From Psammoneis japonica (taxonomy: Eukaryota): a DNA stretch of 64,000 bases. The translations under genes were made by a program, and so were the position numbers. Location: assembly GCA_008632985.1 (NCBI GenBank), contig QPGO01000102.1, positions 186,001 to 250,000 on the forward strand. Reading direction: 5' to 3'. This document shows, one piece after another, positions 7,100 through 60,994 of this stretch. The number at the start of each line of letters is the position of its first letter. The first letter of the stretch is position 1. The notes under the pieces were generated by a model that saw only the letters and a program-made list of their open reading frames with translations, did not search any database and was not told where the DNA came from.

Positions 7100-9750
7100 T
7101 GCAGGGCAGGGTTCAGGTTGAAGAACATTCTGAATGGCAGGAACAGAGTCTGAAGGGTGAGAAACTGTGGAAAAGAGAACCAAAAGTCATGTGATTGAAA
7201 CACTCCCAGGCTGCTGGCAGTGGGCAGCCATGCACCACCAAGGGGCATGCAACCTTTGTGTTCCAGCAGTTTCAAAATGGCAGTGTGGCGGGTGTTCGCT
7301 GGACTCCCTCCAACTTCCCGCCACAGTGCTGCCTCAAGGAAAGCAAAAAAATGGGCACCAACAGCACACCAAAGAACTGAGATCCAGCGGCAATTTCATG
7401 CTCAAAAAGAGCTGTGTGTCTCATGATGCTTCACTTCAGGATCACTCTGCAACAGCGGCTCTCTGCCATTGCACCCTGGTTGACAAGCTGCTGCAATTGT
7501 TCAATCAGAGGTGGCCCACATTGCAGAAAGAAACTTTGAAGCACATGCCATTGCATGCTCCACTGTGGCGCAGTGTGGTCTGTTTCAGCGCTCTTCACCA
7601 GCAGCTCCTGAGAGAGTTGAATGAGAGCTTGGAGCTTTTCTCTGGCTCATTGCCTCCTTGTGGCCCATCGGCACTTGCGCAACAGACTGTTTGCTGAAGG
7701 CATGTTCCTTTTTGTCCCCCTGCTCTGAGATTTGCATGTTTGTGCTCATGCAGCAGCTCAGGAAGAAAACGCCCACTTGCACCCCCCCCCAAAGCTCAGA
7801 GGATGTTTCAGCCCCAGCAATTGTTCACTCCAAGTGGTCACAATCATCACATGTCTTCTTGGACCACCACAGCAGCAGCTCTGCTGGACTTTGCTTGACC
7901 TGCCCAGCCAGCCTGGACACCTCTGTGCTCAGGAGAGAGAGGAGCTTTTTTGAAACACACTGTTGTGTGCTTGATGATCGTGACACCACAGTCTGTTGTG
8001 GTTTTTCATCAACTTGCCACAAGCCAGATTTCCAGCACCCACAAAGTTGTGTAAGAGTGTGAGAAAAAAGTGTTCTCTTTGGCACATTGCTGTGTGTCCC
8101 TTGTGGCTGGACAGCAGCTTTTGCATGACACCAGCCACTTTGTTTGTCTGGCAGGCTCTTTTTGTTGTTTTAACAGGATCCCTGCTTTACAAGATCTGTT
8201 GCACAGCTGTGAGCTCACATTCATGTGAGCTGTGGGGAGGTGAGCTGGTTGGGCAGCTGCTCAATGAATTTTTTTGTCCATTGAACATGACCTTGTGAGA
8301 CAAAATGGCAGCTTGTGCAGAGTTAGAGCCTGCAGCACACTTTCCATTGTGTTTGGGTTTTGAGACAAGTTTGTCATCTCACAGCAAAAAGCTGTGCACA
8401 ATGCTCAAATGTTGGTTTTGCATTTGCAAATGAAGTCACATGAGGTTTTCATTGAAAAGCAGCAGTCTTGAGGCAGAGATGGCAAAGCTGCTGACACAGA
8501 AAATGGCGCTTGTTTTTGCCTGTTGTTTTGGGCCTGGCAGCAGGGGCTCCATTTTTGGGTTTTTTGCTGGAGTCTGGCTTCAATGCAAGAGAGGCACACA
8601 TTCCCAGTTGCCAAGCCCCCCTGCTTCTCTGTCTGTGGAGCAGCACAAGTGGCCTTCTCTGTGAACTTGCAGAAATCATTCAAAAGAAGGGACAAGCCAG
8701 TGCTTGTTGTTTTCCTTTTTTTTCAAGAAATTGAGTGCAAGATTAACTGCCATCATCAAAGTCAAGGAGGATGGCACATTTGATGGCACATTTTTTGTGT
8801 CAAAAAAGTCTCTGACAACAAAACAAAGTGCCCTTCAGAAGATGCAGCACTTTTGTGGCAAAAGAGATGCTCAGACAACTGATTGAAGGGTGGGAGTTTT
8901 GGGCACTGTGGCTCAAATCCTGCACAGATTGTGGCGGGCATGCTGCCCAGATGTCGAGTGTGCTTTTTGTCAACCTGGGCAATGCCCTGCTCATCTGACC
9001 ATAACTGACCTTCTGTTTTGTGCACATTGTGAAGTTGCAGGGTCAATTTGCAGCATCAGAATCTCTTGTTGGTGGAGAACAGCACACTCAGAACAATGAA
9101 ACAAATCTTTTGGTCCAAATGCATTTTGCCTTCACTCCTTGCACCCAGTTTCTGCTTTGCAGCACCTCTGGAGGCTGCCAAGGTTCACATCAATTTTGCT
9201 GAAAAGAGAAAACAAGCAAAGAGTTCAAAAAGTTGGGGCTGTTGTGGAATGACTCCAAGAGAGTTGTCCAAAAATCTCTTTTGTTTTGATGCAGAGCTTG
9301 CAAACTTTTGACCCACAAATTGTGTGTAAACACCTTGCTTTGGTGCAAGACACCTGCTCTGATTGGCAAGCATGGTGCAGGTGTGGCTGGCATGCCATGA
9401 CGTTGCTCCCGAAATCGTTCACTTGCTCAGGAAAGAGGCTGTCCATGCAGGTGTTGCGGGTCTGTGCGCTGAAATGCTGGAGCAGCTCGGCTCATGTTCC
9501 GCGGACAGACTCAAGCAGATGAAGCTCTACAAGATCTATCCGCAAAACCGAGAACTTGAAGCTAAGACCGATACGCTTTTTGGTGCGAAGACTGGTTTCC
9601 TCAAGAACCTTGTCATCAACCGATGCACCAAGGCAGATGCCATGTTCCAGATTGAGTGGAGGGCAGTGATGGGATTTGGGCTTTGGCAACAGTTTGGGAA
9701 GACGAATTTTATTTTCTTGCTGTGAGAATGCTGGCATGCACTTTTCAGGA
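7100..9750. mobile_element. Degenerate repeat/TE relic, TpA- and CpG-depleted
   Basis: Almost no TA and few CG, with strong TG/CA excess and many overlapping Tyr-free ORFs. The right edge (~9480-9750) is less altered and still reads like coding sequence. Family not identifiable. Confidence 0.55.
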
Positions 9751-10440
9751 TCACACTGAATTACCAGCTCCTCAACATTTATAGGCCCAAATTTGCTTCA
9801 GCGTAGTGTCGTTTCACTGATCTGGTCACCGCCGCTTGCAGTTGGACAGCCACACAAGACTCGGCAGGGGCAACAGAAAACAACCAAGAGACAGTCACAG
9901 GCCGCGGTACAAAGTGCGATGCAGCATTGACACGGGAAGCAGCATATCCGTACACAACATCGTTGTTCATCTAGATCACTCATAAGTCTTCTTTGGATTT
10001 TGTTTGAAGTGGTAGTCAGCGAGAATCGAATGCTCGGTTTTGCTCTGTCTGTCTGCGTCTAGAGTACAGTATGTTTGTAGCTTTGTCTTGCTGGATGCTT
10101 GAGCTGTCAAGAGAGACTGTGTCTTTCTAGAGAATGGCGCAATTGCTTTTTGTGAGACAGAGAGAGAGTGACAAAGCCAAAAGGGTTTCCGTGAATGAAA
10201 CATGAGTCGTGACATTCCAAGATGTTCCGATGCCTGTTGTGAGCTGAGCTCGGTGTTATTGTTGAGTTCGCTTTCGGATTTCAGTCGTGCGTTGATCGCG
10301 CGCTACAGAATGGAGAACTTATCACCGCCACCCAGTGTCCAGTGAGATACTGCTCTTGAAGCATCGGCATGTGTACAATCATCCTCCACAAGGCAATTCA
10401 ACTGCACCTACTACACGTCAGGTAACACAAAATGAGACTT

Positions 10441-12423: not shown

Positions 12424-12538
12424 TTCGGTGGTTTATTTTGTTGTTGCATCATCGTTACGTCGTCGGCCCACTTGGACCGTCCTGAGTTTTCACGAGCTCG
12501 CGCACGAGCTTTTAGCCTCCGACTGTAATTCACACACC

Positions 12539-16588: not shown

Positions 16589-16899
16589 GGGTGTTGTTTT
16601 TCATTACGTGCATATGTCAAGGGAAGCAGCAGCACTGGTAGCACCCTCCAGTAGCTACTGTGTAGAAATGGGATTTCCCTGACAAACTCCGAATTAGCAT
16701 ACATTATCTCGATTGTTTGTAGACGAATAAGCGAAGTACCTGTATGCAGTCTTTAGAATAACGCCACACTTTGCGACATGATAAGAAACTGTCTCTCGCT
16801 CTGTACTTTTGTCCTCTTTACAACGACACTCACTCATCCTCAGTCTCGTTAACGAGATCTATGCTGGTTTCACCAATGCATCCCTCCCCCTCAGGACCC

Positions 16900-19800
16900 A
16901 CCGTCGAATTTGTTTCTTTTCGTCTTCGAGGTTTGCAGCGTGGACACTGTCGATGTAAAACTCAATGGTCTCGTTTTGATCATCTCAGTTCCCTCAGTTG
17001 GATTGCCCAACACATGCTTGATGGTGCATTCACATGCAAAGTTCTCACAGAGGGCGCTGTCAGCTTGAAAGTCACTTGCTGCTTGCACATTGATGAAGCA
17101 TGACGCATCTGGCTCAGTCAAGGAGTCTTTCTGCATTGGCAAAATTAGAAAGCATGGCTGGCAGTGCTCAATCCCCACAGTTGCACTTTGAGGTTTAAAT
17201 CCAAAACCCACTTCAGGCTTCCACCAATGGCAAATGCATTCTCCTTCATTTTCCAAGGCACATTTCCACAAAGCTGTGCTCTTGGTGCAGGACCTGTTTC
17301 TTTGATCCATCCACAGTTTGTGCCCCCATCATGTGCTTGGTTTCTAGAATCCTTGTGTCTTTGACGGGGTTGCATTTCAGTGCTTGCAGTGCTTTTTCAG
17401 CAACATCCTGTGCCACCCATCTCACTTCTTTGCCATGTCCAGGTGTGACGGTGGTGCAAGAACAACTGCCACTTTCAATTGCTGAGCAGAAAGAACAGAC
17501 AGCAAACACAACATCAAACTGTGCCATTGCTGCTTTGCACAACTGTCTGAGTGGCCCCATGTTGTCATTCTTCACAAATCAAACAAACAGTGGTTTTCAG
17601 TCTCAGCAGCAGATTTTTTAAAAACAAGTGAGCATCAAAGGTGACTTGCTTGGATTGCTTGGACAAGTGAGGAGAATGATGCACAATCTGGGTTTGTCAG
17701 CCATGCATTTGCCAATGTGCACAGCCCTCAATTGATGAAACACCAAGCTCCAATGCCAGATGTTTCAAACAATCTGCACGCATCAAAAGGCCTCTCCTGG
17801 CAGCAGTGTGAGCAAGCCTGCTCCTGTTTCATTTTCAAAAAATGATTTTTGCCAAAAATCAACACGTGCAACAACTGGTGCCACTGCTTCTCCAAATGCA
17901 GCATGCTGCAGCACTTTTGCATCAGCACACCAAACCACATCACACCATGGGGGTGCTGATTGCTGATGAGCTGCTTGACTGCAGACACTCACTGAACATC
18001 TCAGCTGCATGAGTGACTTTCATGCCACCAGCCCACAATGCAACGGTGCTTGTTGCAAACAAAAAATTGATCAGCAAGGTGCTGTTGTGCCAATGTGTCA
18101 GTGTCTTGCAGTCATTCTACACCCAGGCTGCCAAACAGGTTAATTTGTGCACAGCAGCAGCACTGACAGAGTGAACAAAAAACTTGCCAAGACAACTGAG
18201 AAAATGGACAAGAAGACAGATTGCAGCAGGGCAACAAACAGGCTCTGCAGTGTGAAAGCACTGCTCCAGTTTGCCCTGTCAGTTGTTGGCAATCTTGCCC
18301 CATCCAAGTGCAGTTGGCAAGCAAACACTGGTGTTGTGTTGTTGACCCGCCCCTCTGTCTGACCACATGGTCGCACAATTTTTTTTGTGGAAGGTGGAAA
18401 AAGGGGTTTTTCCAGATGACACACACCATGGCAATCAAGCTGCACCAGCAGGCCAATGCAGTCTCTTGACAAATGAACATCATCACAGAGCACATCACAA
18501 GAGTGGATCAGCATGTGGGATTGTCACAAAGATGGATGTCTCTGCAGCCACTTTGTTGACTCAAAAAGCCAAGCATTGGCATGGAAACTTTTTGCAAAAC
18601 AGATCAAAGTCTCCCTCAGCAGATTTGCAAAGAAGGTGACTGACAGAATGGAATGTGGGGCATTGACAGATCCCTCATCTGAAAAAAGGTGGTCTGGCAG
18701 CATTGGATCTTGTCACTTTGCAGAGACAGATGAGCACACATTGTTGAAACGGCATTGCAAGCAAGAACCAACTTGCAGCCTTGGAAGCCATCAATGGCAG
18801 CAGCTTTTGTGACACACAGACACAGTGGCATCTGAAACAATGGTCTGTGTCAATGGCTTCTGGGCTGACTCAAAATCACAGGCAGGGTGTGCAGGAGCCA
18901 ACACCTTTGTTTCTTTTGGCAAACTCACTCTCTAGAGAGCCTGGTTTAGATGGAGAGATGCAAGATCATTGTCCATGATGTGGATCTTCAGCAGATCAAA
19001 TTTGGCAAGAATGAGAAACACTGATGAAGAGCCAATCTTGACTGCAATGTGTGCTGTTGTCCAGCTGACAGCATGTTGTCAGGGAGGTTCTTCTTGACCC
19101 AGAGTTTTGGGTGTGCACACACCACTTTTGATGTTGAAATCATGTGTGAAGCTCACATGAAGGTGCTTGCACTTGATTGTCACCTGGAACACAGAAATGT
19201 GCCAGTGCTGGTCACTGGAATCTCTTGATGACTGGCCTTTACAAATTTGGAATCTTGCTTCTTTTCTGCCAGCTGGCTTTCCCCAATTTAGCCACAGCCA
19301 CACAGAAGATGTGGCATGCACTGGCGAGGCAACCCACAAGCTAGAATCTTCAAGGTTCTTGTCCAGCACACCTGCTGCAGCTGCACCAGCTCATCAACAG
19401 CAGCATCACATCTGCACCATCCCACACATGACAAGTTGGTGCTCACAACCAATGGCAGCAAACCCTTTTTGGCTGCTTCAGCTGTCAATGGCACAGTCAA
19501 CAGCAGCGCCATTTGTTTGTGCCATCTTGTGAGAAGGTGTTTGTCTCTGCACATCATCCAGTCTGTTGCTCTGCACCCCACTCCCCACCGTCATTGTGAA
19601 GCACACATGATGACATTTGGGAGATCAGGTCAAAAGCCAGCTGCATTGTCTTGTTTCTTGTTGACTGTGTCACGCCACTCTTCTCCAGCTCATGGCTTCA
19701 TTCATTGCTGTTGTGCAATGATGAATCCCGCAAGCCTCTTTCAAGGCTTCACCATGCTTGCTTCTTGGATCTGCAGCCCCTTTTTGGAAAGAGGAGGAGG

Positions 19801-22390: not shown

Positions 22391-22564
22391 CCTCATTCAC
22401 ATTATACCTTGTAGGTGTGGTGTGTTTATCGGTTCGTCATCCCGGGTTCACCACATCAGCACTGCTGTGATGTTAGAATTGGAAACAATTCACCAAGCCA
22501 TGAATACTAACAAAAGTCAGATTGACTCCTGTTTTGGGAGTCGCCATGCCGTCAGACGGTCGTC

Positions 22565-36785: not shown

Positions 36786-37149
36786 AATCGCCTGCTTGGA
36801 TGGTACATTGATAAAGACATGTAGTTCGTTTGCGATGCTCTGGCAGTAAGAGAGAGAACGCTCGTCACCACCGTCTTTTCACCATGGTTCTTGCTTTTTC
36901 TCGTCGCTTGTGCCGCCGCGGAAGAATCGGATGCTCAAAAGCAGGACAAGTTTCACGTGAATTTCTACGGAACTTCAGCTATGACTCTTGCGCCGCTGTT
37001 TCCCCGCCAATTTCGAATTGCCCAATCTGCAGATCATTTTGGATTTTCATGTCACCACCGCCACTTACTCGCATCATCTGTCGCACCGCAAGCCGTTCAG
37101 CAATGCTGTAAGAGGACGGGACTTGCCATTGCTTCACCCCGCTCCCCGG

Positions 37150-40800: not shown

Positions 40801-40813
40801 CAATTTACAGACT

Positions 40814-40932
40814 TCCGGTGTGATGCAGGTGGTTAGCACACTTGCCTTTCACGCAGGATGCCGAGTCTCTGCACACAACATGTGCGCAATAAAAAAAATC
40901 CTGCCACTCTACCAGGGTTCGAGTTTCTGTAC
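40814..40932 (+). pseudogene. Fragmented tRNA-Glu pseudogene copies (5' two-thirds at 40814-40861, T-arm fragment at 40910-40932)
   Basis: Aligns to the intact tRNA at 40968. The 5' fragment differs only at TA sites. Confidence 0.85.
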
Positions 40933-40967
40933 ACCTCATGTAATAAAAATCCTGCCGGTCTACTAAT

Positions 40968-41040
40968 TCCGGTATGATGTAGGTGGTTAGCATACTTGCC
41001 TTTCACGCAGGATACCAGGGTTCGAGTCCCTGTACCGGAA
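40968..41040 (+). tRNA. tRNA-Glu(TTC)
   Basis: Acceptor stem TCCGGTA/TACCGGA, anticodon arm CTTGC-CTTTCAC-GCAGG, T arm CAGGG-TTCGAGT-CCCTG. 73 nt. Confidence 0.93.
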
Positions 41041-45906: not shown

Positions 45907-48900
45907 GCATGACTTCTTTGATTGGAGCAAAAGTTGCCGTGCTGGGAAAGAAGCCCCATTTGGTTGTTGAGCTTGTGTTTGGTGATCCTCGTGAATGCGA
46001 AAAAGGTGCTGCAGCACAGTGGGGTGTTGCAGACTCTGCTGCAGAGAAGTGGACCGTGCTGCAGACATTTGATTGATCCTCGTGAATGCAAACAAAGCAA
46101 TTTCATTTGATCTTCATTGTGCAGTGTGCAGCAGTTGGCTGTGCATTTGCTCAGTGGAAAGGGTGCATTTCTGATTTGAAGTTTTGTTCCTTTTTTCATG
46201 TCTCGCTGTGTGGAGGTGCGCAATCTTTGCTGTCAAAAATTGCGCTTCAAGCAGTTGTGCTTTTGCAAGAAGAAATTGATGCCTGTGCAGTGCTTTTGCA
46301 ACTTTTGAAACATCGCCTTGCGACAAACGTGCCGGTGCAGCAATTGCAAACACTCCATCAGAGTCGTCGTGACGGGTTGCTCATTGTTTTCTCACACGCT
46401 CCAGACACAACACACACATTTTTCATGAAGTGACAATGAAACTGGAGACGCTGTTTCACCACGGTTGATTCCTCATGCAAGGTGAGATGCTGGTGAGATG
46501 ATCCCCCCCATTTGTGCAAATGATGTGTGTGCACAAGCTCTGTCTTGACATGTGCTGACAGTGTGTCTTTCTGCTTTTTTCTTTCCGCTTGTCTCAGTGC
46601 AGTTGCTTTTGATTGTGTCTCTCATCTTGTCCAAGGTGGAGTCTTCTCTTGGGTTCCGAAAGCTTCAGATCTGTGGACAAGGGCCAGAATGTGACTCCCT
46701 CCTTGCCAATCCAGGGCTGTCGCCAGCAAGTCCCCAGCTTGTGTGACGAAGTGTCGGCAAGTTACAAAAATTGAAGACCCATCTCATGACAAGCAGAGCA
46801 CATCAAGACACGCTTCAAGGCTCGCCAACTGGAGCGCAGCAGCATGAAATCAAAGTTCTCCGAATCTTTTTCATCTCAAGTGATGGCAAAGAGGCTGTCA
46901 GATGCAAAACACAAACAGCACATGTGCTGCATCAATGGCGGTGGGATCTAAAAAGGGAGCTGTTTTAGCATGGGAAAAGGCTGGCAGAGCAAAGGTCAAC
47001 AGGATGAGCTCAAAGCATGGTCGCCACATGGAAGGTGTCGGAGCAAAGGTTGACAGGATGCGCTCAAAACGCAAGCACCGAATGGAAGGTGGCAAGGCTG
47101 GCAGATCAAGTGGAAAGAGTGGTTTGAAGCACAAGAGCAACTTGCCTGTTGCTGAAAAAAGTGAAAAGTTCAAGAAACGTCACTCCCAGCTGGGAGGTCT
47201 GCAAAGGAGAAATGTGCTTGTTGTGGTGCTTGGCCCGGTTGTGCTTTTTTTTTTTGTTGTGCGCATGCATCGCGCATCATTGAGCTCTGTCGTGTGTCGG
47301 CAACGGTGCTTTTTGTTTTGCACATGCATGGTCCGGGGTGGTGGAAGGATGCAGAAAACCAAGGCAAGGGAAGCGAGTGAGCCAAAAACAAGGAAGGATG
47401 GCAGGATTTGGATTGCATCACAAAAAACAGCGGTGGCATCATCATCTCATCAAGCGATGTGCATCGCCTGTCTTCCTTCGGCATTGCGGTTGCCTGCCCG
47501 GCGCACTTGTGCATGTTCTCACCATCAATCTGATTTGTTGAGCCAGTGCTGCAGTGGTCAAGCTGCTGCATGAGCAAGACTCTGAAATGACACACCAAGA
47601 AGTGACAACCGACGCGCTCCAGCCCTGGGCGGGACTCCGTGTGACATTCGGCCGTAGAAGCCTGCGCACGAGCTCTTTCAAATGTGACACCCGAATCTCA
47701 GGAAACAAATGATCTCAATGAATGCATTCAAAACGAACAAAAAAATGATGGAAATGTTCTCCTGGTGACTTGGGATGTTGACAAAAACCAAGACTCGCCC
47801 CTGGCAAAAATTCGCCTCATGCATTCTCCAACAGCGACGAAGCCTTCTTGGCCATGACAGTCGTCTTTGCGTTGGTCTTTTGTTGACCATCCTTTTCATG
47901 TGTCCATTTTTCTTTTTTGTGGGCTGTTGTCCAAATGATGATTGCACCACATCTGGCGGGCATTGAACGCACGCTCTTTTGAGCTTTTGTGGTCTCTCCA
48001 GCAGCACCCCATTTTTTGCCCACATTGTTCTCTTGTGCTCTTTGTTCTTTTCTTCAGATTGAGACCATGATGAGAGAAATCATGCATCTTGCCTTGTTGA
48101 TGGACAAGGCAAAATGACTGCCGTTGAGTCTCAGCATGCTTTTCACTGTGTGGCGGCATTTGGATTCTTTGACTTTGAGGGTCAGTGTTTCACGCAGGCA
48201 CTGCAGCAACACAATGGACCATGGCATCATGGCAACAACTCCTTTTGGTGGCTTGACACAGAGAGACATCCTTTTCTGCCAGAGTTGCCAGTCTGTGGTC
48301 ATTGGTGAGAACGAGCGGCATTGAAGAGAGAACAATCTCTCCATCTGCCAGCTGCCGGTGCATTGTAGATTGCTGCGCTTGTGTTGTTGGCAAGCAGCAG
48401 CACACCATTTCACTCTCAGCATTGTTTCATCATTTTAGTCACCATTTGTCTCACACTCAGTCCACTCTGTTTTTGCTGACAATGTCAGATTGGATGAAAT
48501 CAACATGCAGAGGGGAGACGTCATGCATCGTGCACTGTGCCTCATGGACTGCAAAATGGTTGCCGTGTCATCATCAGTGACAAGAAAAGCCACGCTGCGC
48601 AATGATGTCAACGAGCGGCACTGCTGATCAGAGTGGTGTCTCAATTTCCAATTTCTGCATCTTGCTGTGCCATCAGATCTGCAGATTGTCATGCACATGG
48701 ATGAGTCTCAACACAACTCATCATTGTGTTCTTGCCTCACTCTTGGACTCTTCTTCATTCTGAACTCATCATGCCAGCATTTGGCAGAATCATCATGATG
48801 TGATGAACACTTTGCAAGTCACAAGTGATGATGTTTCAGAGTTTGCTGTTTGTGCAGCACGGCATTGATTTGTTTCCTGTTCAGCATTTTGCAGCAGAAG

Positions 48901-49580
48901 GACCGGCATGCATCACAAATGAAACACTCAAAAAATGGCATGGCAGCAACACTGCAAATCTTTCCATGTGTCGTGGGCATCTCATGCTGTTTGCTTTGTT
49001 TGCATTTTGCACACATGCTGTTGCTTGCGTGCTGGTGTGCTTTGAGACGTGCTGCTTGCTTTGATTGACACATCATTGCTCTTCTTTGAATGTGGTGAGC
49101 ATGCAACATGTGATGAATCACAAGGATGACAAACAAATTTGTGCATCTGGCCAGCACTCTTTCTTCTCTTTTTTGCAGACAATCAACGATTCTGGTCCAA
49201 GTCTGTCCTCCAAGAATGCCACTCTGACTGAAGTGCTGTGTGTGTTGATGGTGGTCCAAGTCTGTCCTCCAACATCAGAGTGCACGAAATGTTAAAAATG
49301 TGCAGATTTGCGTGATGACAATTTGTTTAAATGTTGCAAAATGTTGTTGTCGTGTGATGACAGGCCAACCTCTGGTTGCAAGTTTGGCACACCAACATTG
49401 CAACAACTTGTTGAGAATTGTGCACGCTGTTTTTCACTGCACCCACATCGCCATTTCTGCCTCCACCTTGTTGCCATGTGCCAATGCGTGATTGCATTGC
49501 CACACAAACCTTGGTTTGTCAATTTTTGCAAACATCATTTTAAACAAGAAAAACATTTCATCGGCCAAGTCAATTCCTTG

Positions 49581-51600
49581 TCACGTCTGCAGTGCAATGA
49601 CCGAGTGCCATGTCAACTGTGCACACATTTTCTTGCTGTGCAACTCTCTCAAACCAAGCTGACAATCATCATCGGACTCGTCTTCATTGGACTCGTCTTC
49701 ATCGGATTCGTCTCCTCCATTGTTCGTTTTTCCTTTTGCGCCTTCCTCCTGCTCATCGTCATCACCATTGTCGTCCCTGCTGCTCTCCACCATTGGGCTG
49801 TTCATTGCCTTCACCTTCTCTGCATCACCGGTCGGTGCTGTCTTCTTCTTCTTTTTTGCTTCTCCAGACTTCTCGTGCTTGCTTTTCTTGATCTCCACAT
49901 GCCACTTTTCAAACTCCTTGCCCTCCTTGGAGTCTCTGTCTTTCGTCACCTCTGTGCACAAATCGTTGAACCGAATGATTCCGTCGTCTCCCCAAGACTC
50001 TCGTTGTTTCTTTGGCTTTGTGCACCAAGGGGCAGGCCTTGTTTCTTCGGGCTCCATTTCCTCACCCAATTCTTCCACCGCCTCCTCCTTGTTCCTGCAT
50101 GCCCACACCTGCCAACAATTCTCCATGGCCAACAGCGCCAAAGCTTCGTCACCTGCCGCAAACAACTGTGAGACCTGTGCATTCCCAGTTTTGATGGCGC
50201 AACTCCATGCCTGCTTTTGCTTGGTTTGAGGCAGGATGTGATCACAGAACCACTTGCATGCCTGCTTGTTCCTTCGTTTGCCGCCAGCGACAGTGCCCAG
50301 GCTGAACGGATCCCATGTCGGCACAAATGGGGTGTCATTCTCTTCATTCTTGTCATGGCTTGACTTTTTCCTGTTTTGCTTTTTCCTCCTGACTGCCGCT
50401 TTGAGTTTCTTTTCTTTTTCCTTTCCCTCTTCCTTGGTGACAACGCCTGTGTGGACAAAGCATCACCGTCATCCTCTTGTGAGATGCGCGCAACTCTTGA
50501 ATCACACACATTGGTCACTTGACTTGCGGGCCATTGCCTCTGCCCCAACAGCCGAACACACCGTGTTTCTGCGATTGTTGATTTGCCTTTTTGCCGCCTT
50601 TTTTGCCCATTCCTCCCAAGTTCCTGACCAATTTGAAGTGTCCATGTTGCCACCAGCAATCTGTTTCTTGACAAACATTGAGACGCTCCCATTGCTTGCC
50701 AATTCTGATGGACTGAGAAACTTCACCTGTGGAAAGAGATCATTTCTGGCCACCTTCTCTGCTTCTGATTTCAATGCACCATGCGCTGCCTGCGCACCTG
50801 TTCTCTTCAACACTGCCTGAAGTCTCAGGCTCATTGGCTTGATGGTCTCATTTTTCTTTCTCTTCTTTGCCGGTGGTGCTGGAGACGACATCTTGATCTT
50901 TGCACGGCAGCAATGAGAGCAGTGTCACTGTTCGACAGTGCAGCCGTCGTCTGGGTCATGTTGAGACAGCCAGCCACTCTGTTTTTCTCTGCAACACTGC
51001 ACAAATCATTGTCAGCAACACTGAAATTTGAAAACACATTTGTGTGCAACAATGAACAGCCCAACTTGCTTTTTGACATGGCTGTCATTGCGTTCCAACG
51101 GAGACAATGTCCTTTGTTTTGACAGCAAATAAAAAAGAACAATGTCCACTGCAAATGCCAGATGAAAAATCAAAATGCAGACACGTCATGCCCATGAGAA
51201 TCATCCAAATCTGGAAGACAATGCAATGTTTGCCATTTTCCCGCCATTTTTTGCGTGTTGTTCTTCTTTTCCCTTCTCATCCACAAGACAAGGACGACGA
51301 GTGTGAGTCTTGATGAAGGCCCTGTCAACATTGACCAGAGAACCATGAGGCAACGGCATCAGCACACAGACTTGGTCAGTCGCTGGCAGCTTGATCACAA
51401 ACAAAGCAACTGGCTTTCAACGCCTGAGAAGACTCAGCACTCACCTGAGTTGCGGGTTGTCCCTGTCAAAGCAATTGGGGACAATGTTTTGGTTTGTGAA
51501 CAATGTCCAGGAGCAGCAGAAGCACAAGAAAAGGCCCCATTTGTTTGGGCTGCACAGGACAGAAGGAAGTGTTGGTCAGATTTGTTTCTAAAATGGGGTG
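49581..51600. mobile_element. Relic of a Plavaka/CMC-like DNA transposon (accessory gene on minus strand, possible transposase C-terminus on plus strand)
   Basis: Minus-strand remnants LFPQVKFL..W...RQINNRRN and GDEALALLAMENCW..W...W...GI.RFN.L...V..DR. Plus-strand remnant LRVVPVKAI...V...R..WSDLF. These resemble proteins I recall from such elements in diatoms; not verified. Confidence 0.45.
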
Positions 51601-51614
51601 CGCGTGTCAATCTG

Positions 51615-53688
51615 TCATTCACTCACAGTGATCACCCAACTCTTTCTTGCAAACATGATGAATTTGATCCTTTCAGAATTGGCAAAGTCATTGCAGCACA
51701 CGTGAAGCAGTGCGGTGCGAGCACCTTCCGTTGCTTTTGTTCTGATGTCTTCTTCAGAAACTCCAAAATGAGCTTCTTCCTGATTGGAGGGCTTTCCCAA
51801 CCACCGTTCTCGTTGTTCTTGGGTTGCAAGGTTGCTTGCAAAGAACATGCTCGCACAGCTCTTTGCAGCATCCTTGTCCATTGTGCATGTGTCGAACACA
51901 GCCGACAATTTCTTCCATTGTTTGACAACCTGGAAGAAGGTTGCAAGAGCAAAGGGAATCACCATGTTCCCCCCTTCTTCATTTTTGGAGAGCAAGGCCC
52001 GAAGATCAATTAGATTTTGGAAAAATTGAGTCGTCCCAAAATGACTGTCGCACCACTCTCCATCTGGCATCCAGCGGCAGTCCAACATGATTTGGTCGAA
52101 CCCATGATTGTCAAAATCAACAAGTTTCTCAAACTGCTGCTTGACTCTCTTGATGAAATCTCTTTTTTTCACATTGCAATTCAAACGCAGATCAGGATGT
52201 CCATCTTGGAGAGAAACTGTTGGAACGATGTTTGTGGTTGTTTTGTTAGATTCCTCAAATGCCATTGCGCGGGCCTCGTCTCGCCTGAGTTGGTCGGACA
52301 ACACCAAGGCCACCCCCTTCTCAGAGCACAATTCTTGAGAAGATGGTTGCCTTGCATTGAGCGGATGGGTCATCCCCAACCACAGCACATTGTGTGTTTC
52401 CCCGTTGGCTTCGTCACTTGTGAAACAATCTCCTGAGTCGCTGTGGTCCTCTTCACCCTCGGAGCAATGTGCAACTTGGTTGTGCTCATCATCAACAGGC
52501 TCTTCGCTTTTGTCCTCTTCACCCATGCAAGCAGTTGGAAGTTTGCTTGTTTTCTCGTCAATTGACTCCTCCTCGCAATCGTCACTTTTGTTCATTGCGA
52601 ATGACAACAAATCACCGGCGGCCTTCTTCCTGTTAGAACGAGAAATCAATGTGACAATGTTGGCACAATCAGACAGAAAACAAATGTGATTGCCATGAAA
52701 AAGCAACCTCTCTTTGCCATTCCAGCTCGGCTCGAACTTCATCAATCGACACGAATGGGACTGGCTCCCATTCACACCTTCCAAACCGCGTGATCATTGA
52801 TTGCCCATCAGAGAACAAGAGCAACAGATGCTGTCCGCAACAAAAGACATCGCAGATTCCCATCTTTTCACGAGCTGCACTCAGGTCACACAGTGAAGAC
52901 TCTGGGCCATTCTTTCCATGGTCTTCCAAATCAAAATCACCCTCTGTCCATTCCAAGAGCAAATCGCGCTTCTCCACCGGGACCTTCATTTCCTCCATTT
53001 GCTTTGCCACTCCCAACTTGGCTGCTGGATGGACAAGATTACGAAGGTCAGGGTGAGGATGGATCCCCATGCCACACAGCATCAATGTCTGCATGGAGTT
53101 CATGCATCTGAGCTCTCCACAATCAGCACCTGCATGATCCCATGTTTGGACCACGGTTTGAAACATGTCCTCGATCGCCTTGTGGCCAAACGTTGGCTTG
53201 CCAACATTGCCATTGATCCTGTCGATGACAACAACCAGTCCGCCAACAAGCAAATCCATCAAACCATTGAGTTTCATCCCGCACTCTGCCACATGAACCT
53301 CCTCGAAATCGAGTCCCAGGCTCTGCATGTGTCGGTTGTTGCGATCCCCCGCAATGCTGCCGAGTGGCCTCGCAGCTTCTCTGAAGCAATGAAGGACACG
53401 ATCGCCAGCCACGAAAGGATGCTTCACAGCATCTGTGTTGCACAACAAGCAGCAAAAATGGGAGAATCCGGTTTGACACCCAGCCACAATGGCGCAACGA
53501 AAGCAATCGTGTGCTTTGTCATTTTTTTGCGCACACATCCCATCGCACGTGCGTTGTGCGTGCTGCACGCGCACGTGGTCAGGATGGCGGAAGGACGCAG
53601 AAAACCAAGGGAAGCAAGGAAGGCAGGATTTTTGGATTGTTTCATAAAAAGTTTCTGCCACTGTCATCAAGCGACATGCATCGCCCAT
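51615..53688 (-). pseudogene. TpA-eroded remnant of a large unknown gene (two overlapping frames, 339 + 389 aa)
   Basis: Protein-like composition with an acidic linker, but almost no Tyr and excess Cys/His. Paralogous fragments at 47230-47600 and 58620-58740. Confidence 0.55.
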
Positions 53689-55572
53689 CTTCCTTTACAG
53701 CAGCCTCAGGGTTGCCTGCTGCTCGGCACACTTGTGCTGACTGCAATGACACATGTTGTCTCCATCAATCTGATTTTCTGAAGCAGAGCTGCAGCAAGCG
53801 GTCAAGTGCCACATTGTCATTTGCAAGATGATTCTGAAACGACACAGAAGTGACATCCGAACTCTTGTGGCATCCACATTCTTTTGATGGATTGTCATCT
53901 TGAATGATCGCATCGCATCTGGCGAGCATTGAGTGTGTGCTCTTTTGAGCTTCTGCTTTCAGTCCAGTGCTCCATTCTTTGCCAGCATTGTTTTCTCTTG
54001 TGCTCTTCATTTCTTTTCTTCAGATTGTGCCAACAAGAGATGACATGCGCTGTCCCTTGTTGACAAACAAGACGAAATGACTGTTGTGTTCATTGAGTCT
54101 CCACACGCTTTTTGCTGTGTGTTGGCACTCAGACTCTTTGGTTTTGTTGAAGATCAGTGTTGCGACTTTGGGTGTGGCAGTGGTGCCTTTTGGTGGCTTG
54201 ACACAGAGAGACATCCTTTTCTGCCAGAGTTGCCGGTCTGCAGTCATTGGTGAGAACATGCTGCATTGAAGAGAACAATCTCTCCATCTGCTGGCTGCCG
54301 GTGGATTGTAGATTGCTGTGTTTGCATTGTTGGCAAGCAACGCACCATTTCACTCTCGGCAACATTTCATCATTTCAATTGCTGTTTGTCTCTCACTCTG
54401 TCTATTCTGTTTTTATCAACATTGTCAGATTGGATGAAATCAACACGTGGAGGGGAGACGCCATGCGTCGAGCATCGCACCTCATTGTCTGCAAAATGGT
54501 TGCCTGCGCAATGTCGACAAACGGCACTGACAGAGCGGTGAGCGGTGTCTTAATTTCTGTGTCTTGCTGTGCATTTGGATCTACAGAGAAAGACCGCTGA
54601 ACGACTTGCACCTTGTCAATCTAGGGTTGTCGTCATGCGCGAACACTTTGTGGTGACGAGTGTCAGTGAGTTGCAGAAACTGAAGGTGCACCTCACGGCG
54701 TGCCGGCCCAAGACAAAAGCCATCATTCAAAGCACAGTCACATTTGTCAACCAGAGCGCACGGCATTCACACCAAGTGATCTCCCTGTCTGCTGCAAATT
54801 GTGGAAATCTCTGCATTTTTGGCAAGTTGATCACCATCTGCAAGAAAGATCCTTTCTCTCTCGGCGTTGTTTTGATTTCTTGATCGTTGCTGCTTGTCTC
54901 ACTGTGCTTTGGATTCTCCATCATTGGGGCCCAAAGCCCAGCTGCCGACACCAGCACTGCAGTGGAGAGTGGGAGAATCACAGCAAGCAATGCAGTCAAT
55001 GAATGCCAGCCATCGCTGTCCATTGGTGGCAAGTGCCGGCAGAGGTGCACCCGCCTGTCTCCGCGCCTCCGAATCATGATTGACTCTCATGACTGAGAGA
55101 TGAAAGATGCACATCATGTCATGTGCAAAATGAACATGTTCAATCCAGATTGGCTTTTTTTGGGCGCGTTTCGCTTCGCTCATCAAACACAAAACAAAGC
55201 GAGACATCACGCTGCTCTCGTCATTGCCCTTGCTTTTGGTGTGGCATGCCGTCTTTCTCTCGTTGCGTTTCCTCATTCCGCCATTTACACATGATGCTCA
55301 CATCAGTTGTTGCTTGTAGTTTGTCTGGCCATCTCACAAGTGAAGGGAGACGAGCGCGAGATGCGAAACTCTTCACACCGCTCGGCATTGGTGGCAGTGC
55401 ACCAATCGCCGTCATTTGACACGGTGAGCACTCGATCATGTCACTGTTCACACTGTGTTGCTCTTTTTCATTGATGCGTTTCTAATCATTTGTTGTTTGT
55501 CATGTTGTTTGCTGTTGTGATGCCGAAGGATTCGCACGTGATTTGCACTGCAGCTCAATGTGTCGCATCATC

Positions 55573-58337
55573 ATGCCTCCCAAGCAACACAAGAATCTTG
55601 ACAAAGGACAAAAGACCATTGGCACCTTTTTCAGTCCCAGTGCCAAGGCTGATGCAACGACTGCCATGACCGCCAAGACACCAGCCAACACGCAACCGAA
55701 ACGAAAAGCGGCAGAAACGCCTGCAGCGAGGAAGGCCAAGGTGCCCAGAATTGCCGAATTGCCCACTGTGTCAATCAGCAGTTTTTTCCAGAGTCCACCA
55801 GCTGATCCCACTCTCAAGACACCCTCTGCTGTCATTGCCAATTGTTGTCCCATCGGCACCGGTGCTGCAACTTTGCTGGACAAACCATCCACCATGAATG
55901 CCGATGCTGTTGGCACACATGTTGCCACCAAGTCCAGCTGCGAGGCTAAATCAGCCATCAGTCCATCTGACTCCATCATTGCTGCAAATGGATCATCATT
56001 GGACGCAGCCCTAAAAGAAGCAACCGCGAAAAGCAGCAACGCCAACAGCTGCAAGGACGACGAATCGTACATTCGAGAGGATGATGAGTCCGACTGCAAC
56101 GAGAACCAACACAAGACAATTTGTGAGATGCCACACAACGAAAAGGACTTTTACAAGCAATTGATCATGCCAACGTTTGGCTCCAACGTGGCCAGAGAAA
56201 CTGCCAAGCCACGTTGTGAAGCCATGGTGGCAATTGCTGAAAAACACCACTTCATTGAACGTCCAGACGGGCATCATTCGGACCAAATGCTCACCCGAGC
56301 TGTCACCAAGAGCCATGGTGTTTGTGGCATTCAAAAGGATGCACTGGCAAAGATTGGTGCAAGCAGCAACATGCACAACCATTGCAACCTTTCAAAAGAT
56401 GTCGAGCAATGCGACCAATTTCGTGTCATGGTCAATCTCGACTGCACCGACGCCGACTTTGATGCAGAGATGCAAGTGCTTTGCCGGAACTTCATTGATG
56501 CCATTGACAAAGCTGATGGATTGAGCGAGTTTCAGCATTTTTTTTTCATCGAGCTGTTGCGAGACCGGCACGGGGAAAGCCTGGGACCCAAGAAAATGAT
56601 TTGGTTGCCAATGTTGGAATTCGGCCTGCAACAGAGAGAGAATCTTCCTGCGCCGTTTGAGTGCATGATGCACAAGGAATCTGTTGCAGAACTCCACTGT
56701 GATTTGGCGGAATCAAACTGCAACTTGGTCACCAATCATCTTTCCAAGATCATTGGTTTTGCAAGGGAGAATCCGTTGCTTCTGTTCGTTTTTGCCATCT
56801 CTAGTTGGAAGACTGGATGTGATGGTTTGTCCAGCAATGTCTTGGCCACCCTTTGCATTGTTTTGCATGAGCATCTACGATGTGATGCGCTCCCTTGTCC
56901 AGCGGTCCATGACGCCGTGACTGCTGAAGAGAAGCACTCGAAAGCGCACACGGACCAACAGAAGGCTGCCGCTTGGCTTGTCTTGCACTGCCACATGCAA
57001 CACCTGATCGAGTCACCGTTTGGAGTTGCACTCTTGGACAAGAACAACTTGACATTTCGTGATGACCCCAATTTCCATCGGAGCGCAGCTCAGGTTCTTG
57101 AGGACCATGGCTTTCGAGAGGTTGAATGCATCCCATTTGGCGAGATTCGTCTGTTTTTGGATGAGAGCAAGCTTCACGCAGTTTTCTTGCACAAGCCACT
57201 GTGCATTGCAAGCGACAGTCGGGCGTGCACTCCAATGATGTTTCATGTTTGGCATGCATTGTCACTGTCAGTTCTCTGCAACGTTGCTTGAGTGCTTCGG
57301 GGCGACGAACTTCTGAACCCAAGTGTCAAGTTTTGCAATCCCATCAATGGCATTCTTGGGTTCCAGGTGGGTCGACTCGGTCTTCATCAAAATCTTTTTG
57401 TGTGTTCAGCCATTGGCAAGGAATGTTTCTCTGGAGCTGAAACGAATGCATTGATTGAGAATGACCTTGCGAAAACGGTTGGAGAAGACGCGCCTGTTTC
57501 AAAGATGGTTCGCGTAGAGCGCTCGGCAAGGTGAGTCTGTCTGCTTTTGTTCTTTTGCATCATCACATCCTGCTGACAGCAGCCTGTTTGTGCCATCCTC
57601 TGTTGCCAAGTGGCAAGAAACGGGCAGCAGATGCATTGCGTCCTGTTGATCGAGTCTTGCTGCACCAGCTCCGCTCTGTCATTGGCCATGCTCAGCAAGG
57701 CGAGGAAGAGCAAATGTGTCTTGAGATGCGCGAGCTTGCCAAGAAGGGTCCAGGCAGCACAACTGCGGACAAGAAAACGTCCAACTGTGGACTCAAAGAG
57801 ACCATCATGAACCAAGCCATCCCTGGTTCGGCTTTGGCACTGCACCTCATTTCTCTGCATGAGCGACATGCGAACAACACGGGCAATCGTCAATCTGGAC
57901 CTGGCAAGGGTAAAAGCAGAGCAGAGGTTGCAGACAACGATGCAATGGTGAAGGATCTTGTGGATGCTTGCCAATCCACTGCAAGTGGCAAGCCTGGACT
58001 GGCATTCTGGGCAAAGGAGGCAAGCGGAGAACGCTTTGTAGAGCCAACGGGGCGCTCGTTGTCGGGTTGCGGGGACCATCTTTTTCCCGGCAACAGCTGC
58101 AATGAAGTTGCAGGCATGACATGTGAAGGCATTAGAGAGCGTTGCAAGTCTTGCCAAACGTTCAAGGGAAATGCCAACTCTGTCACGTGCGAGCGGCATC
58201 CTCATTTGGACATCAAGAAGGTGAAATGCAAGATGGACAAGAGACGCAAGGTCAGAGTCACTGCGGGTGGAATGCAGGGTGGAGTTGCGAACGGATGTGT
58301 GTTGTGTCAATTTGTGTTCAGCAATTGCCAAAGCTGA
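55573..58337 (+). pseudogene. Repeat-borne gene copy B, heavily TA-mutated, premature TGA at 57289-57291
   Basis: Colinear with copy A. The stop is CGA->TGA. Tyr codons are converted to Cys/His. Confidence 0.85.
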
Positions 58338-58875
58338 GTGTGACTTCTTTGATTGGAGCAAAAGTTGCCGTGCTGGGAAAGAAGCCCCATTTGGTTGTTG
58401 AGCTTGTGTTTGGTTGATCCTCGTGAATGCGAAAAAGGTGCTGCAGCACATTGGGGTGTTGCAGACTCTGCTGTGGAGAAGTGGACCACACTGCAGACAT
58501 TTGATTGATCATCATAAATGCAAAAACACTTTCAGGCGGATGTGCTTTTGCCAAATGGGAGGCATTGTTAGCACAGAGACACGTTCTTGTTTCTTGGTTG
58601 CCATTTTCCATGTTTGAGGCATTTTTTGTCGCGCGCATTTATCGCGCATCATTTCGCTCTATCGTGTGTCGGCGTCGGTGCCTTTTTTTTACGCGTGCGT
58701 GGTCCGGGGTGGCGGAAGGATGCACAAAACAGAAAACCAAGGGACGCACCCCTGTGGCAGGGGAGCTGTGTGTGTGTGCGTGGTTGTGCGCGCACGGCTT
58801 CGCCGTGCGTTGAGTTTTAATGTCAACATCCACACGAATGTGCACATTCCACAAGCAAAAATTCCCATTCCACAG

Positions 58876-60994
58876 CTCCCCTAAAACTCTAACCACCAAA
58901 AACCGAGGGGTCGGAAGCGCACTTTTGGGAGCTCTTTTTCTCCGCACAAAAAACACGCGTTTCGTCGACTCGACCATGATGATGCCTCGTGGTTCTTCCC
59001 CATCGCCTTCCCAGGACGCCGATCCTGCTGACACCGTTGCTGATGACACTGATGCAACAGGCAATGTCATCACTCCGGTTCTCGTGGGTGTGACACGCAC
59101 AAAATAAGATGCTACAAACTCACACTGTTGTTTGCACGCTCCACCGCCTCCCACAGATGCTGTCACGAATTCCAACGCCGCACCTGCGTTTCGGCCCCCT
59201 GGCATGCCCGATGCTGTTGCTCCTGCCCTCACTGCCGCAGGTGCTGTTGACACTGTTGTTGCATTTTGCCAACAACGTCCACAATAAAATGCCAATGACT
59301 CACACTTCTTTCATTCTCGCCCCACCGCCTCCCACAGATGCTGTCACGAATTCCAACGCCGCACCTGCGTTTCGGCCCCCTGGCATGCCCGACACTGTTG
59401 CTCCTGCCCTCACTGCCGCAGGTGCTGTTGATGCTGTTGTTGCATTTTGCCAACAACGTCCACAATGAAATGCCAACAACTCACACTTCTTTCATTCTCG
59501 CCCTGCCGCCTCCCACAGATGCTGTCACGAATTCCAACGCCGCACCTGCGTTTCGGCCCCCTGGCATGCCCGACACTGTTGCTCCTGCCCTTGCTGCCAC
59601 AGATGCTGTTGATGCTGTTGTTGCATTTTGCCAATGACGTCCACAATGAAATGCCAACAACTCACACTTCTTTCATTCTCGCCCCACTGCCTCCCACAGA
59701 TGCTGTCACGAATTCCAATGCCGCACCTGCGTTTCGGCCCCCTGGCATGCCCGACACTGTCAATCCTGCCCTTGCTGCTGCAGTCACTGTTGACACTGTC
59801 ATTGTTTTTGCTTTGGAAGGAACACAATGGATGACGGATGACGGCGGACCAGGAAACCCACGCAACCACGGCCTGCTGATGGACGACACATCAATGGACA
59901 TGAATGGTGCCTCTTGGCCAGCTCTCGAGTGCAGTCTAATCTTTAGAATGTGCAGACACATTGTGCAGCTCTCTGTAAATTAGAAACCTGATGACAATTA
60001 GATGGCAGGCATGCTTTCACAGTTTTTCAGTTTCAAGTTGGAGAGGTCAGCGAATTGGCATTTGTTTGCAGGCGACTTGGCAAGGTTTCAAATGGTGCAT
60101 GTGACTTGGACACTGCTCTGTTTTCCAGGACTGGGTCATTGTGTGCAATTCCACAAGAGGCCACTCTCGCCGTTTGAATTCTACATGTGATGCACAACAC
60201 ACTGTTTTTGCATGTTGCTAAAATGGAGGCAGGCAGCAACGTGCTTTTGGCAAATGCTCACCATGTTTGTCACTGTTAGACCTTCAAAACTGGTGCCTTG
60301 TCGACAGCCATGCTGCCACTTTGCATGACGGCACCTTCTCTGCCCGCATTCCATCAGCTGCATCCTCCTTCACATGTTGCTGCGGTTCATCTTGACACTT
60401 GTTGTTGGCTCCGATTGGTTCCGCTGGGCTCTGGGTGAGTCTCAATCACCTGCAGACAGACAAGGTTCTGCTTGGGAATGATCATCCTGAGAAAGGTTGT
60501 CACCATGCCTCCTGTCATAGATGCTCCTCTGCCACGCCCACTGAACCTTGACGTCGGTTTGTTGCTTTTGTTTTTTGACCTGGTTTCGGAGCTGCACCCC
60601 AGACCGTTTGAGAGAAGGCTCATCAGTGCCTTCCACAACACGGCGATGCAAACGAGAATCCAGTTTCTCCGGGGACGCAATGACAGGAGTGGACCAATCA
60701 CGGCGCTGTGTTTGTGTTTCAGGCACAGGATCCGGCGAACAGAAGCCCAAATCCTCTGGATGGCAAATCGGCTGTGTTTGGGTAACGACAGCGGGTGCAA
60801 CGGTGCCGTCCAATGCAGGAGGGACTGCCGCATCAGATGTGGCAGGCGGGGATGCGTCAGGTGGTGTGGGGGACGAAGAACGGGAGGTCGTCATGGTCGA
60901 GTCGACGAAACGCGTGTTTTTTGTGCGGAGAAAAAGAGCTCTCAAAAGTGCGCTTCCGACCCCTCGGTTTTTGGTGGTTAGAGTTTTAGGGGAG
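58876..60994. mobile_element. 2.1-kb element bounded by ~105-bp near-perfect terminal inverted repeats
   Basis: CTCCCCTAAAACTCTAACCACCAAAAACCGAGGGG...GACTCGACCATGA at 58876-58980 and its reverse complement ending at 60994 (1-2 mismatches). No convincing TSD and no transposase. Confidence 0.75.
59100..59810 (+). repeat. 181-bp tandem repeat, ~4 units
   Basis: CCACAGATGCTGTCACGAATTCC recurs at 59151, 59332, 59513 and 59694. Confidence 0.95.

Follow-up and report, generated by a model that had tools for sequence, protein, structure and literature searches.

Results

TA-poor domains lie between host genes

The sequence studied here, which we call the window, is a 64,000-nucleotide stretch of the genome of the diatom Psammoneis japonica (contig QPGO01000102.1, positions 186,001 to 250,000, assembly GCA_008632985.1) in which domains almost devoid of the dinucleotide TpA (TA) lie between ordinary host genes. 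Five such domains, with normal TA in the intervening genes, had been proposed by an earlier reading of the sequence alone. Domain boundaries were called on TA by a two-state hidden Markov model and each domain was evaluated by a binomial test against the frequency of A after T in host DNA, P(A given T), of 0.155. All five domains were recovered, within 300 bp of the coordinates of the sequence-only reading, and their P(A given T) was 0.011-0.020 (7/654, 17/1286, 8/657, 19/960 and 57/4172 T positions in domains 1 to 5; p ≤1e-35 each). That reading had overlooked a small block at 41219-41698 and a sixth domain starting at ~63.8 kb. Genome-level counts were made on 504 kb sampled from three contigs of the 91.4-Mb assembly, of which 46% lay in TA-poor segments of at least 1 kb. 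The window was also compared with contigs of a separate public run, X1, in which domain 3 (28 differences from the window over 5253 bases compared) and most of domain 4 (33 over 8995) were just as TA-poor, which excludes an assembly artefact. The TA-poor features are the following, where CG stands for CpG and no strand is assigned:

Domain 1, 7112-9510: TA and CG erased; old repeat-derived DNA
Domain 2, 16881-22101: TA and CG erased; 21.2-22.1 kb is part of a dispersed repeat
Domain 3, 25329-27784: TA and CG erased; X1 in the same state
Domain 4, 36889-40803: TA loss begins slightly upstream of the glycosyltransferase-61 start codon
Small block, 41219-41698: TA-poor and CG-rich, right after a tRNA gene; its copy on contig C83 is TA-poor too
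Domain 5, 45718-60969: TA erased, CG partly lost; tandem units and inserted elements in a patchwork
Sixth domain, ~63.8 kb to 81.5 kb (extended coordinates): extends 17.7 kb beyond the window end

As proposed, those host genes that matched Pfam families (COG5, MCM-binding, oxidoreductase, Roc, FKBP-MsrA and glycosyltransferase 61) sit in TA-normal DNA. The named relatives of the MCM-binding protein (5230-6624) were solely from diatoms (Attheya, Chaetoceros, Nitzschia and Fistulifera). Kilobases of intergenic DNA are TA-normal too, for example at 29.0-29.5 kb, where the observed/expected TA ratio is 0.99. Contigs of another run, X2, which is listed as DNA, skipped GT..AG introns and followed genes, and X2 is probably an RNA run. 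Its spliced contigs map to TA-normal genes. Among the regions covered are the 5′ part of copy A (described below) and the glycosyltransferase gene, where one contig stops at 36831, 58 bp short of domain 4. Their presence on these genes is consistent with protection by active DNA; stretches that X2 leaves uncovered carry no weight either way.

Inside the five domains, Pfam searches with 149 of 155 frames from domains 1-4, with 100 of 137 frames from domain 5 and the DNA downstream, and with 44 long frames found nothing over the cut-off. The sole transposon match, to a Copia reverse transcriptase, lay beyond the downstream end of the window. Genome searches, whose copy counts are lower bounds, found no close copy for much of domains 1, 3 and 4, and the 8.5-9.4 kb part of domain 1 had 66-72% matches elsewhere in the genome. 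Domain 2 contains, at 20802-20901, a 79% copy of a 100-bp segment that lies upstream of the Roc gene (22286-22381). All the substrates that could be identified were repeated sequences, namely a miniature inverted-repeat transposable element (MITE), a terminal inverted repeat (TIR) element, tandem gene units and a tRNA fragment.

TA is changed to TG or CA on both strands

The nature of the change could be read from related copies in different states. The window carries part of an array of 6-7-kb tandem units that runs from 41 to 64 kb and on to 71.8 kb, each unit with a tRNA-Glu at its head; C83 carries a related cluster at 224-232.6 kb. The gene of these units is an orphan of ~650 or more codons, without a homologue in 5.8 billion proteins (lengths 355-1133) or in the Atlas. 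The units and two inserted elements are:

Tandem unit A, 40968-47610, plus strand: open frame 43275-45218; spliced contig at 43151-43270
Tandem unit B gene copy, 55368-58534, plus strand: erased
Tandem unit C, 61015-64000, plus strand: TA-normal to ~63.8 kb
MITE, 38901-39408, no strand assigned: ~500 bp, terminal inverted repeats, TTAA target duplication with both halves now TCAA
4.26-kb insertion, 49257-53514, no strand assigned: copies on contigs C12 (92%) and C1

The 53 TA of copy A are read in copy B as 22 TG, 22 CA, 6 TA and 3 other dinucleotides, and the majority of Tyr codons have become Cys or His. An erased copy of 40968-43361, 93% identical, lies on C83; 77 TA were kept in the window alone, 2 in C83 alone and 20 in both. 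Within this stretch, 41718-42718 and its C83 counterpart form the youngest clean pair, in which 43 of the 50 differences are A>G after T, and the remainder includes 3 C>T at CG and 1 transversion. A>G changes were preceded by T in 43 of 46 cases. This pair lost 43 of 52 TA and 3 of 50 CG, a hazard ratio of ~28. Rates were also counted in 19 MITE copies (16 of 35 loci were excluded: 3 reference, 6 partial and 7 with background divergence ≥0.04), which kept 208 of 615 TA, 491 of 644 CG and 6272 of 6403 other sites. Here TA loss is near saturation, and the ratio of TA to CG loss was 4.0. TA is thus lost 4 to about 28 times faster than CG. TA changes in the MITE copies were at least 26 times background per base, a lower bound set by saturation, while A>G outside TA occurred at 60 of 3560 positions, 15 of them at one site. 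The ratios of dinucleotides inside and outside TA-poor DNA (TA 0.10, CA 1.50, TG 1.45) show the same conversion.

The following base also mattered. Taking A as the presumed changed base, TA followed by a pyrimidine (TAY) was changed more often than TA followed by a purine (TAR), both in the tandem units (163/302 vs 51/168; odds 2.7, p <1e-6) and in the MITE copies (189/414 vs 189/632; odds 2.0, p <1e-6). The survivors agreed with this bias, their density relative to normal being 0.003 for ATAT and 0.46 for TTAA. There were no strand runs within MITE copies (198 of 370 neighbours alike vs 188.5 expected), and strand-coherent bursts were not seen.

The changes arise in place after insertion

Target-site duplications record changes made after an element has landed. 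Among 52 duplication halves from 26 MITE copies, 31 read TTGA or TCAA, 13 TTAA and 8 something else, and the left and right halves of a MITE were often altered differently. The MITE at 38901-39408 retains 8 of 33 TA and 26 of 34 CG, and the corresponding X1 site is empty, with TTAA intact. This insertion is therefore polymorphic, and 25 of its 33 TA are gone though X1 differs merely by ~0.4-1% nearby; it could serve to calibrate the rate of TA loss. Between the 4.26-kb insertion and its C12 copy there are 79 TG-versus-CA sites and 22 transversions, so the two copies were erased independently. Because both strands, DNA transposons and target duplications have changed, an RNA-stage or reverse-transcriptase origin is excluded. 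The claim of the sequence-only reading that the process does not depend on an element's own replication is supported by changes on both strands in non-coding DNA transposons, target duplications, a tRNA fragment and tandem gene copies. A further element lies downstream of the window:

Copia element, 71820-78896 (extended coordinates), in the sixth domain: 279-bp long terminal repeats (LTRs), 92% alike

Its TA is erased, its CG is near normal and its GC content is 56-59%. LTRs of one element disagree at TA-derived sites.

Repeats seed TA loss and neighbours set its reach

The earlier proposal that TA loss is guided by position could be examined on transposon ends. The following element has many copies:

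TIR element, 58746-61014, no strand assigned: multi-copy, ~9-bp target duplication in other copies, 181-bp internal array

The final ~130 bp of its right end are absent in the window, and the core is TA-poor in every copy examined (0-6 TA per 200 bp). We picked 16 copies among near-full-length top matches and located 29 ends (3 of 32 possible ends were not found, and one flank was just 149 bp). The 18 ends adjoining TA-normal DNA kept 234 of 272 TA, while the 11 ends adjoining depleted DNA kept 34 of 142, and the two groups were fully separate (Mann-Whitney p 7e-6). Six copies had TA-normal DNA at one end and depleted DNA at the other, and in all 6 of them TA survived better at the end on the normal side, in both orientations. 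Paired ends belong to one copy, so age is controlled. CG followed weakly, with 59 of 59 kept vs 63 of 75 at left ends.

MITE copies behaved similarly. The kept share of TA was 0.26 in 10 copies with both flanks depleted and 0.43 in 9 copies with a normal flank (p 0.007; background divergence equal in both groups). Among the 19 copies, TA kept tracked CG kept (rho 0.90, p 2e-7) and neither tracked background divergence. The boundary fell inside the element in 4 of 6 one-sided copies (L044, L079, L080 and L082), and the changes in these copies gave independent products (35 of 63 shared sites alike). Three MITEs (L042, L045 and L083) had lost 53-78% of their TA despite normal DNA on both sides, which indicates that element identity seeds the process. 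Around MITEs in normal DNA, a halo of TA loss in the flanks was weak and inconsistent (11 flanks; 4.0, 3.3, 2.1, 2.1 and 4.2 TA/100 bp outward). An all-or-none model with two classes of MITE was discarded when more copies were added, as kept TA ranged from 2 to 21, plus three intact copies.

Guidance by position thus held, in that the same transposon ends were erased or spared according to their neighbour, within limits set by the lone erased MITEs and by two edges at junctions. The latter are the right edge of domain 2, at the truncation point of a dispersed repeat (22073-22096), and that of domain 5, at the broken end of the TA-poor TIR element (61014), which abuts unit C. The pattern named beforehand as evidence against guidance by position, boundaries that match element termini, was thus seen in part only. 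We conclude that repeats seed the process and neighbours set its reach. Transposition can also move old TA-poor DNA to new sites.

CG loss is nested within TA loss

The signature of passive 5-methylcytosine (5mC) decay, CpG to TpG or CpA in repeats, is present and covers CG alone. The frequency of G after C was 0.228 in host DNA and fell to 0.035-0.041 in domains 1-3, while domain 4 stood at 0.107 and domain 5 at 0.147. Of the 1008 windows of 500 bp, 226 were CG-poor; 224 of these were TA-poor and 0 TA-normal. CG was normal, however, in 123 of the 443 TA-poor windows. CG loss is therefore nested within TA loss rather than coincident with it, and is a slower fellow-traveller, not the trigger. 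Passive 5mC decay as the source of TA loss is excluded by these 123 windows and by the losses in the youngest pair.

The sequence-only reading had described TA and CG as returning together over 100-400 bp at graded edges. Coincidence was found at the six edges of domains 1-3, where the two edges were offset by -154 to +120 bp, that is, within ~150 bp. It failed at the left edge of domain 4, where CG loss begins 574 bp inward of the TA edge, at 61.0 kb, where CG is normal already within domain 5, and in copy A. Over the 35 callable edges (of 37) in the 504 kb, the CG edge lay ≤100 bp from the TA edge in 15, inside it in 17 and outside it in 3, with a median offset of +100 bp. Gradation fits CG; TA edges are mostly sharp. 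Across the 37 edges, P(A given T) went from 0.168 to 0.019 within one 100-bp bin, a step that is partly built in because edges were called on TA. Over successive bins P(G given C) was 0.214, 0.182, 0.128, 0.107 and 0.090, reaching ~0.055 by 1.2-1.4 kb, so that the CG ramp is 0.3-1.4 kb long when edges are aligned on TA. In simulations, one ramp of 300-1000 bp with TA lost 4 times faster than CG reproduced this profile, while a pure step failed (first-bin CG 0.076 vs 0.182 observed). Edges of differing age, some young and some old, could contribute to the CG ramp as well.

Copy A and the tRNA genes

The 5′ part of unit A is TA-normal and TA declines progressively from ~44.6 kb. The estimated share of TA kept is 0.80 at 43630-44630, 0.47 at 44630-45630 and 0.17 at 45630-46092, which bears out the progressive 3′ loss described for this copy from sequence inspection. 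A step and a ramp fitted its composition equally well (log-likelihood -216.0 vs -217.1), and TA drops 1-2 kb ahead of CG. Two tRNA sequences lie at the head of unit A:

Partial tRNA-Glu (5′ half), 40813-40862, plus strand: at the domain 4 edge; all 4 differences from the gene are TA to TG/CA
tRNA-Glu(TTC), 40967-41041, plus strand: intact, TA-normal, ~160 bp outside domain 4

The tRNA-Glu of C83 (232530-232602) has the anticodon CTC rather than TTC and keeps 4 of 6 TA inside erased DNA; its two TA changes lie on opposite arms of the acceptor stem, with pairing retained. We considered tRNA genes as a general barrier and rejected this, as the C83 tRNA is flanked by erased DNA on both sides and keeps its own TA only. 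No tRNA was found within 400 kb holding 27 domains, which also speaks against a tRNA barrier. Among 40 of the 85 differences between X1 and the window, TA vs TG/CA differences occur inside domain 3 and at 27984, 28131 and 28171, ≤400 bp beyond its right edge; they hint that an active fringe may lie outside domain 3.

Candidate enzymes

A search of the genome for the deaminase family gave 9 matches at 7 places, all of ordinary types: a tandem dCMP deaminase (two places), an N-terminally extended TadA, one ADAT2, two guanine-deaminase-like proteins and RibD (labels other than TadA and ADAT2 rest on motif reading). Compared with the human enzyme, ADAT2 (L144, C26:119851) carries a ~55-residue insertion between HAE and PCxxC. 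Another locus (L143, C79:88506) fuses a deaminase domain to a 2-oxoglutarate-Fe(II) dioxygenase in a single 491-codon frame.

The C5 methylase search returned 27 matches, a large number for a diatom. Some of these genes are TA-erased, on C297, C301 and C28 (L153-L155, L159 and L162), and the set may include mobile or viral members. A DNMT3-like gene is present, and in L156 (C34:43451-45664) a DNMT1/DIM-2-like catalytic domain comes after a chromodomain, an arrangement given for some diatom DNMT4 in the available part of PMC9998398. DNMT5 was not identified among the methylase loci examined; of two weak matches followed for it, one was DNMT3-like and one could not be placed, and no SNF2 domain was found downstream. 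The genome search found an endonuclease V gene and no AAG/MPG glycosylase. These searches name no mutator.

Discussion

A proposed mutator acting in repeat-seeded DNA

We are highly confident of the process that these sequences record: TpA is changed in place, on both strands, to TpG or CpA; repeats seed the change and neighbours limit it, and it outpaces CpG loss and encloses it. The explanation that we favour overall, by a modest degree, is a DNA A-to-G mutator that would work in repeat-seeded silent chromatin, with CpG decay as a by-product. The sequences show that a host process turns A:T into G:C at chromosomal TpA sites, in place and on either strand, with a preference for TAC and TAT over TAG and TAA if A is the base attacked. 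It acts on all kinds of repeat-derived DNA, a lone 500-bp MITE being enough to attract it, and it usually spares the final 100-250 bp of an element near ordinary DNA and erases them near DNA that has already been erased. Silent chromatin, probably the guide, would be seeded by repeats and fill repeat clusters, with active DNA holding it at about nucleosome scale. Methylated heterochromatin is a plausible form of this guide, and diatom transposable elements are described as CG-methylated islands overlapping H3K27me3/H3K9me marks in the accessible text of PMC9998398. In the same domains, 5mC would leave a passive and slower trace in the form of CpG decay. If TA and CG respond to a single graded field and TA is lost several-fold faster, the TA edge would be sharp and lie outside, with CG ramping further in, which the simulation fits.

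The weakest step in this scheme is the chemistry, which we judge to have about an even chance of being adenine deamination: a TadA/ADAT2-fold enzyme would turn adenine into hypoxanthine, and replication would fix the change. The tRNA target of TadA, U-A-C-G, matches the preference for TAC. To our knowledge, no repeat targeting has been found for TadA or ADAT2. Both act on DNA through A to I to G chemistry (PMC10354150, PMC11983243, as far as these texts were available); some engineered TadA variants prefer pyrimidine-A, while TadA-8e has no clear motif (PMC11983243, available part).

Several observations weigh against this interpretation. The one natural ADAT2 shown to act on DNA adenine, amphioxus ADAT2/3, targets GAA rather than TA and also deaminates C (PMC10354150, available part), and the deaminases found here are ordinary, without a chromatin-reader fusion in the frames read. 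The absence of strand runs means that there is no trace of a processive single-strand event. CG is normal in the 123 TA-poor windows mentioned above, and within the TIR element the TA kept over the inner 1150 bp was unrelated to the flank and did not follow CG kept (rho -0.35, p 0.20, 15 copies). An erased domain harbours L037, a young MITE copy that is intact; L048 and L095, the latter truncated, have been erased next to normal DNA, and the protection of L038 is only weak. Copy A and its tandem partners are mosaic (0-12 transversions per 250 bp), so that recombination of erased with intact units could have shaped the gradient of copy A.

Alternative explanations

In Neurospora and other ascomycetes, repeat-induced point mutation (RIP), which involves RID and DIM-2, ruins transposons by repeat-directed, dinucleotide-specific transitions after insertion. 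The process in Psammoneis shares with it the direction to repeats, the action after insertion, transitions at a specific dinucleotide that ruin transposons, a leakage past repeats and the link to a C5 methylase-like gene. RIP, however, makes TpA from CpA, whereas here TpA is removed and TG and CA are gained; in addition, one partner of a near-identical pair is spared here and strand runs are absent. Because its polarity is opposite and one near-identical partner is spared, the process is not RIP. A RIP-like sensing that would recognise and mutate paired homologous copies, with some flank spread and chromatin in a secondary role, would accommodate the repeated nature of every identified substrate and the erasure of L042, L045 and L083 in normal DNA. 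The chromodomain DNMT1/DIM-2-like gene would also suit it, and fungal RID may be a relative of diatom DNMT4 (PMC9998398, available part). We nevertheless regard it as unlikely, although it is the strongest of the rivals: equally homologous ends of one family differ by neighbour, the youngest pair differs at just 50 bases and yet one copy alone is erased, searches that give lower bounds found no close copy for much of domains 1 and 3, and the Bigelowiella target discussed below is single-copy according to the accessible part of the preprint (bioRxiv 10.64898/2026.01.13.699255).

If protection rather than targeting were the rule, a TpA lesion would arise everywhere and be repaired, for instance by endonuclease V or a transcription-linked route, only in or next to active DNA. 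Sparing does extend 100-250 bp into elements from the active side, the C83 tRNA is a TA-keeping island in erased DNA, 7 of the 16 X1 differences outside domain 3 (among 40 of the 85 differences) are TA vs TG/CA, and the genome has endonuclease V while AAG/MPG was not found in it. We hold this to be somewhat less probable still, since kilobases of intergenic DNA stay TA-normal while a 500-bp MITE within normal DNA loses 53-78% of its TA, and since in Bigelowiella the change is limited to two regions and some lines (same preprint, accessible part). Chemistry coupled to methylation is also improbable, and slightly more so; here TA changes would be a side effect of 5mC handling (error-prone patch repair of T:G, damage by a methylase) or of a modified adenine at TpA. 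It fits the finding that CG loss essentially never occurs without TA loss, the correlation of TA and CG per MITE copy and the unusually many C5 methylase matches. It does not fit the youngest pair, with 43 of 52 TA and only 3 of 50 CG lost, nor the downstream Copia and much of domain 5, erased in TA with CG near normal; and A>G outside TA is too rare for the error spectrum of patch repair. The least credible explanation, to which we give hardly any weight, is the element's own replication, by RNA editing or reverse-transcriptase error, with domains as clusters of such elements. TA-poor TIR cores have been inherited and moved, and two window edges lie at element junctions; even so, DNA transposons, target duplications, tRNA fragments and tandem genes are changed equally on both strands, ends of one copy differ by neighbour, and LTRs of one element differ at TA-derived sites. 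As the main source it is refuted by the target-duplication and paired-end counts.

Comparison with known systems

The closest known case is in Bigelowiella natans, where TpA hypermutation of integrated DNA of nucleocytoplasmic large DNA viruses (NCLDV) as well as virophages has been described (Mettrop et al., bioRxiv 10.64898/2026.01.13.699255). In the part of this preprint available to us, two integrated viral regions undergo A:T>G:C changes, at TpA only, at ~6e-7 per site per generation, a local rate ~1000-fold raised and on in some lines only, and ADAT2 is proposed. Both systems change TpA to TpG or CpA on both strands of chromosomal DNA and are confined to foreign or silent regions, and TpA-poor clusters with transposon domains are common to both. 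In Psammoneis, too, the A:T to G:C changes are confined to TpA and to regions of the chromosome, with genes spared. Unlike Bigelowiella, the present organism is a diatom, from another supergroup, and its TA loss is near saturation over 46% of the sampled DNA and affects MITEs, TIR elements, Copia, tRNA fragments and tandem genes. The rate was measured in Bigelowiella, while in Psammoneis the process is known from its sequence scar alone. The accessible preprint text does not mention CpG, a diatom, a boundary or a gradient, and neighbour dependence, TAY bias and the nesting of CpG loss do not appear in its account as far as that text goes. CpG decay in DNMT5-methylated diatom transposons (PMC9998398, available part) shares the substrate class and the island pattern and explains the CG loss; it cannot yield TA>TG/CA, and it is slower and nested inside TA-poor domains. 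Searches of open-access text turned up no description of such TpA loss in diatoms.

A targeted chromosomal A-to-G mutator has thus been reported once, in the Bigelowiella preprint, whose available part gives neither a targeting rule nor an enzyme. The present data add a testable rule: the change is seeded by repeats and confined by neighbours at a scale of 100-250 bp, it favours TAY, and CpG decay lags after it. The paired transposon ends provide built-in internal controls. In practical terms, the process hides transposons from annotation, as illustrated by domains 1-5 without a Pfam match over the cut-off; the removal of TAA and TAG lengthens false open frames, and the dating of transposons would be distorted. 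For the organism, the outcome would be that transposons are ruined and genes spared. We tentatively suggest that diatoms and Bigelowiella may possess a dedicated system of DNA adenine deamination guided by chromatin, in which silent chromatin lying on repeats would recruit an enzyme that converts TpA to TpG and halts within about one nucleosome of active DNA. Such a defence, opposite in chemistry to RIP, would be shared within the stramenopiles, alveolates and Rhizaria; this is somewhat less probable than the mutator itself. The enzyme, if found, would be a natural DNA adenine editor.

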